Positions 9,001 to 12,000 are shown, counted from the first letter of the stretch. The stretch is 64,000 nt of DNA from Escherichia coli (GCF_045037415.1 NZ_CP173438.1); one strand, 5' to 3'. Made by a program: the numbers.

Positions 9001-12000
9001 TTAATTTCCCTTCCAGATCTTTCCAGTAATGCTTTTATTATTTTCTATTTTTAGCTGGACTTTTCCCATATTTACTGATGATATATCCAGGTATTTAGCG
9101 CGATGCGGATGTGTTGGCGCACACCCGCACCGCTCATCACAATCACTATTTATAGGGAATAGCAGTTATGACTGACACGCATTCTATTGCACTACCGTTT
9201 GAAGCAGAAGTCTCCCCGGCAAATAACCGTCAATTAACCGTGAGTTATGCGAGCCGCTACCCGGATTACAGCCGTATTCCCGCCATCACCCTGAAAGGTC
9301 AGTGGCTGGAAACCGCCGGTTTTGCCACCGGCACGGCGGTAGATGTCAAAGTGATGGAAGGCTGTATTGTCCTCACCGCCCAACCACCCGCCATCGAAGA
9401 GAGCGAACTGATGCAGTCACTGCGCCAGGTGTGCAAACTGTCGGTGCGTAAACAAAGGCAGGTGCAGGAGTTTATTGGGGTGATTAGTAGCAAAACGCCA
9501 CGCTAAGTTTCTCTCCCCTTCCCCACACGGGAAGGGGAATTTTCCCCCTCACTCCACATCCTCCCTGCGTAACCCAATATCCCTCAACCGCTCATCACTC
9601 ATCTGCTGTAACACTCGTCGGGTCTGCATTTGCCGCCGCCAACGCCTCACCGCCTGCCAGAGTTGCACAAGTCTGATAAACGGCGTTTTGGCTTTGTTTT
9701 CGTAAAATTCCATCTGCTGCCTCCTCATCTTTCAGAGGCTTCATCATCCGTCTTCTGGCAGTTCACAATACAGATGCAAATATTAGTTTTATTTAACATA
9801 CAGACAGATTAAAACAGCATCTGCATCCGGTTTTTTAGCCTCATCTGTACCGGTTTTTCTCTCTGTATGGTCCAAATAAGGAATACAGCATGACGCGTTA
9901 TCAACATCTGGCGACTCTACTTGCCGAGCGGATTGAGCAGGGGCTGTATCGTCACGGGGAGAAATTGCCGTCGGTGCGCAGCTTAAGTCAGGAGCACGGC
10001 GTCAGCATCAGCACCGTGCAGCAGGCGTACCAGACGCTGGAAACGATGAAGCTCATCACTCCGCAGCCGCGTTCGGGGTATTTTGTCGCACAACGTAAAG
10101 CCCAGCCGCCAGTGCCGCCGATGACGCGTCCGGTGCAGCGCCCGGTGGAAATTACCCAGTGGGATCAGGTACTGGATATGCTGGAGGCGCATAGCGACAG
10201 TTCCATTGTTCCGTTAAGCAAAAGCACGCCGGATGTCGAAACGCCCAGCCTGAAACCGCTGTGGCGGGAGCTAAGCCGGGTGGTGCAGCATAATCTGCAA
10301 ACCGTTCTCGGTTATGACTTGTTAGCCGGTCAGCGAGTGTTGCGAGAGCAGATTGCCCGCCTGATGCTCGACAGCGGCTCGGTAGTCACCGCCGATGACA
10401 TCATCATTACCAGCGGCTGCCATAACTCGATGTCGCTGGCGTTAATGGCGGTGTGTAAACCGGGCGATATTGTCGCGGTCGAATCCCCCTGTTATTACGG
10501 TTCGATGCAGATGCTGCGTGGCATGGGCGTGAAAGTGATTGAAATCCCAACCGATCCAGAAACAGGCATCAGCGTTGAAGCGCTGGAACTGGCGCTGGAG
10601 CAGTGGCCGATTAAAGGCATCATTCTGGTGCCAAACTGTAATAATCCGCTGGGATTTATTATGCCGGACGCGCGCAAACGGGCCGTTCTCTCTCTCGCTC
10701 AGCGTCATGATATTGTGATTTTTGAAGATGATGTCTACGGTGAACTGGCAACGGAGTATCCGCGCCCGCGGACCATTCATTCCTGGGATATCGACGGGCG
10801 AGTGCTGCTGTGCGGCTCGTTCAGTAAAAGTATTGCACCTGGCCTGCGCGTGGGCTGGGTCGCACCGGGGCGCTATCACGATAAACTGCTGCATATGAAA
10901 TATGCCATCAGCAGCTTTAATGTGCCGTCCACGCAAATGGCGGCGGCAACGTTTGTGCTGGAAGGTCACTATCATCGCCATATCCGGCGGATGCGGCAGA
11001 TCTATCAGCGCAATCTGGCACTTTATACCTGCTGGATACGGGAATATTTTCCCTGCGAAATCTGTATTACGCGCCCGAAAGGCGGATTTTTACTGTGGAT
11101 AGAATTGCCTGAACAGGTCGATATGGTCTGCGTCGCGCGGCAGCTGTGCCGCATGAAAATCCAGGTGGCGGCAGGCTCGATTTTCTCGGCTTCCGGCAAA
11201 TACCGTAATTGTCTGCGCACCAACTGCGCTTTGCCGCTCAGCGAAACCTATCGCGAAGCACTGAAGCAAATTGGCGAGGCCGTGTATCGGGCAATGGAAT
11301 AAATTCGACATAGTGGCGAAGCGCCTGATTTACTCTCACGAATAGAGTGTGACTCGTTTTATCTTTGCAGGGTAATCGCCACGTTCCAGCATGGCTTAGG
11401 CAAAGTGCGCTTTGTTCATACCGGATGCGATGTGAACGCCTTACCAGGTCTACAAAATCTTTAAAGTTAAATATATTTAATGGGTTATGTAGACCTGATA
11501 AGCGTAGCGCATCAGGCTGCTTTGCGTTTGTCATCAGTCTCTGATTAGTACTCGATCCATGGATCGCGCTTGCTTTCAGGCAAGGGCTGATCTAATGCCT
11601 GCATTTGCTCTGCCGAAAGTCCGGTATATCGTTGTATCCATTCAGGATCCGCCCCATTCTGCAACAACAATCGGAGGAGGCTCTTTTCCCCTTCTTCTTT
11701 CCCTTCTTTCCTCCCCCTCTCCCTTCCCAACAGCCATCCATCATTATGAATTCGCTCTGCAATCGTCATTATTCGCTCCCTGTGTTGTGGCATTCGACGG
11801 ATAAGTTCGCTGATAAACTCATTAAAACGCGCTTCATCGCCAGTCAGTAAAATGTAATTTAACAGCGCGGTTATCTGGCTGTCATTAGCGCACCCTGTAA
11901 CCAGTAATACTGCCAGTTGATCAATAAGCCCCATTAGATCGCGCTGGCGAATATGCTTTTGGATCAACTCCAGCAGGGCGACTCTGCGATGCTGCACAAT

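Follow-up and report, generated by a model that had tools for sequence, protein, structure and literature searches.

The window, that is the whole stretch of DNA that was analysed (64,000 nucleotides), derives from an Escherichia coli B2 chromosome with 99.99% identity to Nissle 1917. The genes are arranged in the order yjiA, brnTA, a restriction endonuclease gene, hsdM-hsdS-hsdR, symE, yjiS (on the opposite strand), yjiR and an rpn gene, while the K-12 order given for comparison is hsdR-hsdM-hsdS, symE, mcrBC. The window is collinear with the Nissle 1917 chromosome CP022686 at 99.97-99.99% identity, except for one 2.3-kb insertion far from symE. A 1-kb query around symE was recovered at 100% identity from many E. 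coli chromosomes, including those of Nissle 1917, JJ1887 and O25b:H4 strains, and in the identical genomes the annotation reads type I restriction subunit R, symE, yjiS and yjiR.

The type I system is preceded by a BrnT/BrnA toxin-antitoxin pair on the minus strand (679-1255) and by a gene at 1452-2618 for a "restriction endonuclease" of 388 aa, which no NCBIfam model matched. The rpn gene occupies 11545-12501, and with brnTA and symER it makes three toxin-antitoxin-like modules in the island. Elsewhere in the window there is a group II intron of 2271 bp (49085-51355) that Nissle 1917 CP022686 lacks. The frame for its reverse transcriptase/maturase is broken in two (49741-50385 and 50357-51265), its domain V/VI region is matched by the Rfam Intron_gpII model at 51269-51355 with 64.9 bits, and it sits in an IS3-like ISEc52 transposase, the inverted repeats being at 48323-48349 and 51817-51843.

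The symE gene had been located at 9168-9506 by a sequence-only reading of the window, and an open reading frame of exactly this extent (plus strand, 112 aa plus stop codon) was found there in the ORF list; in identical genomes it is annotated as symE. The product was matched by Pfam PF08845, SymE_toxin, with 74.9 bits (cut-off 29) and by the NCBIfam equivalog NF010128 with 215.9 bits (cut-off 132), the latter covering residues 1-110 of 112; its amino-acid identity to K-12 SymE is 90%. An AGGGA motif read from the sequence at 9154-9158 (plus strand), 9 nt before the ATG, is likely the Shine-Dalgarno sequence, and in the predicted fold it lies opposite the loop and the 3' arm of the 5' hairpin of the antisense RNA SymR.

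A LexA-box-like sequence had also been pointed out upstream of symE. The operator, TACTGATGATATATCCAGGT (9073-9092, plus strand), shares 19 of its 20 positions with the box of K-12, and in a column-for-column alignment with the K-12 yjiW/symE box, TACTGATGATATATACAGGT, the single difference is an A to C change at position 15 (9087), directly preceding the CAG of the CTG-N10-CAG motif (9075-9090). The operator overlaps the presumed -10 region of symE, TGATATATC (9079-9087); the promoter hexamers overlapping the box are presumed. A consensus promoter scan picked up no promoter for symE or symR, a result which speaks neither for nor against them. On its own, the CTG-N10-CAG motif has no significance in the window (17 matches, 12.6 expected by chance). 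Since the symE box has 6 mismatches to the LexA consensus, it was missed by a consensus search allowing at most 3 mismatches, which returned no site in the 64-kb window. A LexA matrix of 20 positions was also applied; it was derived from 21 operators known from the literature, the symE box being left out, and its numbers are approximate. By this approximate matrix the symE box outranks every other site in the 64 kb, with a heterology index of 9.65 against 12.9 for the next best, and it falls inside the range of the training operators (2.1-12.4). The chance expectation for a site as good is about 0.1 per 64 kb, or about 3e-4 per given 150-bp promoter region. The second-best LexA-like site, CAGTGGATTAACTTCCAGTT at 39541-39560 between fimB and fimE (approximate index 12.9), is within the chance range.

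The same approximate matrix gave an index of 8.83 for the K-12 box, from which the box of the window differs by departing from the consensus at one more position. Across eight diverged E. coli alleles no position of the box from the third onward varies except position 15, and the sequence further upstream diverges. At position 15 a C (CCAGGT) stands in seven of the eight sampled alleles, the window included, and an A (ACAGGT) in K-12 only; judged from these alleles, the C variant is the common E. coli form of the symE box. The CCAG form also occurs in established operators such as those of uvrB, uvrD, ruvAB, dinB and dinI, and the A to C change should weaken LexA binding only slightly. Since K-12 carries the minority form, the induction data obtained in K-12 may slightly overstate the LexA repression in most strains. 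The K-12 box has been described as a LexA binding site (PMC1891008) and is a recognised SOS box with a published heterology index of 7.9; in an RNA-seq study symE was among the classical SOS genes, its expression in K-12 being LexA-dependent and its induction by AZT only 1.5-fold (PMC11228462).

A different situation was observed in E. coli O68:H12 strain 97.3 (locus L008), where a group II intron (ltrA, at about 1150-3000 of that locus), oriented like SymR, has entered precisely at the left border of the symE LexA box. In this allele the homology to the others starts at ACTGATG, thus the -35 region of symE is displaced by about 2 kb, and in this strain symE transcription may be disabled while SymR is kept.

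SymR had been placed by analogy at about 9100-9175, and this position was borne out by Rfam: the symR model (RF01809) matched the minus strand at 9097-9173 in full length, over model positions 1-77 of 77, with 83.1 bits (gathering score 61) and E = 8e-16. This is one of only two gathering-level Rfam matches in the whole window. The RNA is 77 nt long and forms two hairpins, and at its 5' end it shares 6 nt with the beginning of symE, just as K-12 is annotated. As the gene occupies exactly the strand opposite 9097-9173, SymR is a perfect complement to the leader, Shine-Dalgarno sequence and start codon of symE; by sequence, this complementarity provides the base-pairing RNA of a type I toxin-antitoxin system. 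The predicted fold of SymR has -35.4 kcal/mol (z = -5.2) compared with -37.8 for K-12 SymR, with the same two hairpins, a shape that all eight alleles retain. No double compensatory changes were found among the eight E. coli alleles, which are too similar for a covariation analysis, therefore the structural support for SymR comes from the Rfam model. Some weak Rfam matches near the locus (Clostridiales-2, IS128, archaeal snoRNAs) had E values of 0.2-0.95, far below gathering scores, and were rejected as chance.

The -10 hexamer of symR, TAGAAT (9181-9186, minus strand), is situated inside symE codons 5-7 and stops 7 nt short of 9173, where SymR has its 5' end. The CATTCT at 9180-9185 is identical in sequence to the K-12 symR -10 element mutated by Kawano et al. 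2007, where a change to CACTCC abolished SymR (PMC1891008). This CATTCT is the same in seven of the eight sampled alleles; strain 204446 has TATTCT, a change which falls outside the TAGAAT hexamer. SymR is clearly present, yet it is unannotated in identical RefSeq genomes: in the PGAP-annotated ones the annotation under the 73-nt match is "none", and Nissle 1917 has no ncRNA row.

The alignments revealed that in this lineage the loop hexamer (9114-9119) of the SymR 3' hairpin (9100-9133, minus strand) is inverted. In the RNA it reads CGCCAA here and UUGGCG in all other sampled alleles, which on the plus strand corresponds to TTGGCG as opposed to CGCCAA in seven other alleles (K-12 and six more). 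The closest allele, that of ExPEC XM (L003), differs in the hairpin by exactly this 6-nt inversion, and the exact 73-mer with the inverted loop was found in 419 of 5426 complete genomes. The inversion explains a secondary symR match of Rfam on the plus strand (31 bits, model positions 41-74). Since the sense and antisense strands are still perfectly complementary, the SymR:symE pairing itself is unaffected by the inversion, which looks like a by-product of hairpin template switching.

At the 3' end of symE the homology to other alleles stops at 9485, and homology on the yjiS side restarts at 9544. The lineage-specific junction of 58 bp that links the symER module to the yjiS side (9486-9543, plus strand) encodes the SymE tail SSKTPR (AGKQKVA in K-12) together with the stop codon and carries a hairpin; no counterpart of it was found in the K-12, GmrSD or helicase arrangements. 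In the protein alignment no other sampled allele shares the final 6-7 residues of SymE, and of 5426 complete E. coli genomes 919 have the direct symE-yjiS junction. The junction and the altered tail look like by-products of a cassette deletion, and the new tail could change the stability or the oligomerisation of SymE.

The hairpin of the junction, with the AAUUUU following it, occupies 9514-9543 on the plus strand and consists of a 10-bp G+C-rich stem (9514-9523/9529-9538) and a 5-nt loop. On the plus strand it folds with -20.2 kcal/mol (z = -4.0); the same stem folds on the minus strand, with GAGAAAC and no U run behind it. The sequence-only reading had taken this element for a strong bidirectional terminator, and of this description the hairpin itself stands, while "strong" and "bidirectional" are not supported. 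An intrinsic terminator at 9514-9538 serving both symE and the convergent yjiS would fit the position of the hairpin between two convergent genes and the strength of the stem on both strands, the minus strand including an 11-bp stem in a fold of -24.2 kcal/mol. However, the run on the symE strand has only 4 U, the sequence after the minus-strand stem, GAGAAACUU, has no U run at all, and the terminator scan called no site in 8900-9900 on either strand; termination in both directions is thus unlikely. The hairpin is probably a terminator of symE in one direction only, plausible but not strong.

On the other side of symE, just past the hsdR stop codon, a further hairpin was found at 8961-8986 (plus strand, arms GGCCGGATA / TATCCGGCC), the fold of 8945-9010 having -21.8 kcal/mol (z = -5.5). 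No U run follows its stem and it was not flagged by the terminator scan. Likely this is the structure with which the type I restriction operon closes at its 3' end, separating the operon from the symE promoter.

In BLAST comparisons with the loci L002-L008 the identity to the window was 91-94% and was confined to about 9037-9485. BLAST and the alignments delimit in this way a conserved symER module (9037-9485), which includes the promoter, the LexA box, the 5' UTR/SymR and symE codons 1-106. The module is common to every arrangement of the immigration control region that was sampled, and variable cassettes flank it on both sides: three type I families were seen upstream, where the type I system differs from strain to strain, and McrBC, GmrSD-type genes, a large DEAD/DEAH helicase or nothing downstream. 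Since homology across the arrangements is limited to about 9037-9485, symER is a conserved island between exchangeable defence cassettes. Of the 5426 complete E. coli genomes, 2872 contain it and 426 contain it with at least 99% identity to the window. The earlier remark that symE beside a restriction system is a recurring arrangement agrees with Kawano et al. 2007, who noted the association of symE with restriction-modification systems (PMC1891008), and with a 2025 EcoSal Plus review, which names brnAT, symE-symR and rpn as the immigration control region's toxin-antitoxin systems (PMC12707154). The placement of symE beside restriction genes inside this region is therefore already described in the literature.

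The window has all the elements known from K-12 in intact form: symE, a LexA operator lying across the symE promoter, the gene for SymR (77 nt) on the other strand and, within symE, the -10 element of symR. We are highly confident that the locus is the chromosomal symE/symR of E. coli, a type I toxin-antitoxin-like module within the immigration control region carried by a B2 strain of the Nissle 1917 type, with regulation as in K-12. It is an ordinary and already known locus, in an arrangement typical of Nissle 1917-like strains. The sequence-only reading of it is supported, with two corrections, which concern the terminator and the mode of action of the toxin.

In K-12 symE mRNA is induced by mitomycin C, the promoter is repressed by LexA, and the repression by LexA, SymR and Lon is additive. 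SymR exceeds symE by a ratio of 10:1, is fully complementary to the mRNA 5' end, and affects translation more than mRNA stability, Hfq and RNase III being dispensable (PMC1891008). SymR expression, SOS induction and toxicity in the present strain are inferred by orthology with K-12. By this analogy LexA would prevent the transcription of symE until it cleaves itself in response to DNA damage. SymR would be made constitutively and in excess, pairing with the symE leader, blocking translation and modestly destabilising the mRNA, with need for neither Hfq nor RNase III. Whatever SymE is made would be degraded by Lon, and SymE that nevertheless accumulates would stop growth.

The step that follows SymE accumulation is where the views differ. 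SymE carries an AbrB/MazE swapped-hairpin fold (PMC1891008; PMC11894785), and overproduction of K-12 SymE inhibits growth (PMC1891008). In the original model of 2007, with the same architecture and regulation, SymE is an endoribonuclease toxin recycling damaged RNA, and PGAP and NCBIfam still name the product "endoribonuclease SymE". However, as Thompson et al. 2022 are summarised in PMC11894785, SymE gave no sign of endoribonuclease activity in vivo, bound DNA non-specifically and condensed the nucleoid. The curated RefSeq record of K-12 has the name "nucleoid-associated protein SymE", and the AbrB/MazE-like fold is a DNA-binding fold. RNA cleavage by SymE is very doubtful in the light of these data. 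According to the current view, applied here by analogy, SymE would bind DNA non-specifically through its AbrB/MazE-like fold and condense the nucleoid. By the same analogy the label "toxin" needs a caveat, the mode of action having been revised to DNA binding and nucleoid condensation, and the automatic product name "endoribonuclease SymE" is out of date.

It is hardly credible that the locus is a decaying remnant, in which the deletion joining symE to yjiS replaced the tail and the extra box mismatch loosened control, leaving an inactive protein or lost regulation: the 58-bp lineage-specific junction does replace the last 6-7 codons and the LexA box has one mismatch more than that of K-12, but the reading frame is intact, with residues 1-110 scoring above the equivalog cut-off (215.9 against 132 bits), the CCAG box is the form of seven of the eight sampled alleles, SymR and its -10 element are intact, and the junction form persists in 919 complete genomes.

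The symE/symR locus is thus best regarded as a K-12-type module, a textbook example of three-layer control (LexA, antisense RNA, Lon) of a growth-inhibiting protein, and beyond correct annotation the present copy matters little. It confirms that all the control elements are kept in B2 strains, both in the probiotic Nissle 1917 and in ST131-type pathogens. We consider it highly improbable that the position of symER between restriction cassettes is functional rather than accidental. If it were so, SymE might for example coat or condense the chromosome after damage and so protect repair tracts that lack modification against the restriction enzymes encoded next to it, or alternatively the symER module might be a homology anchor for cassette exchange; in that case the inverted SymR loop and the new SymE tail would amount to tuning and not to noise.

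Compared with symE/symR (yjiW/ryjC) of K-12 MG1655, the gene is the same, the 77-nt antisense RNA has the same offset with the 6-nt overlap of the coding sequence, and the position of the LexA box and the symR -10 element are the same as well. Both loci also lie in the same chromosomal region, the immigration control region, with a type I restriction operon upstream. The differences are the C in place of A at LexA box position 15, the inverted loop hexamer in the SymR 3' hairpin and the SymE tail, SSKTPR instead of AGKQKVA. The neighbours differ too: upstream stands hsdR of a type I system ordered M-S-R here and hsdS of EcoKI in K-12, and downstream yjiS follows directly in the window, without mcrBC.

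The other SOS-induced type I toxin-antitoxin system of E. coli, tisB/istR-1, lends itself to comparison. TisB is a small membrane peptide, and IstR-1 is encoded beside its target, not opposite to it. In contrast, SymE is a soluble AbrB-fold protein of 112 aa and SymR is a true cis-antisense RNA. What the two systems have in common is a LexA-repressed toxin gene the translation of which is blocked by a small RNA (PMC1891008; PMC11228462). With the antitoxins of the MazE/AbrB superfamily SymE shares the AbrB/MazE swapped-hairpin fold (PMC1891008; PMC11894785); however, in the symE/symR system the AbrB-fold protein is itself the growth inhibitor, it has no protein partner, and the antidote is an RNA.
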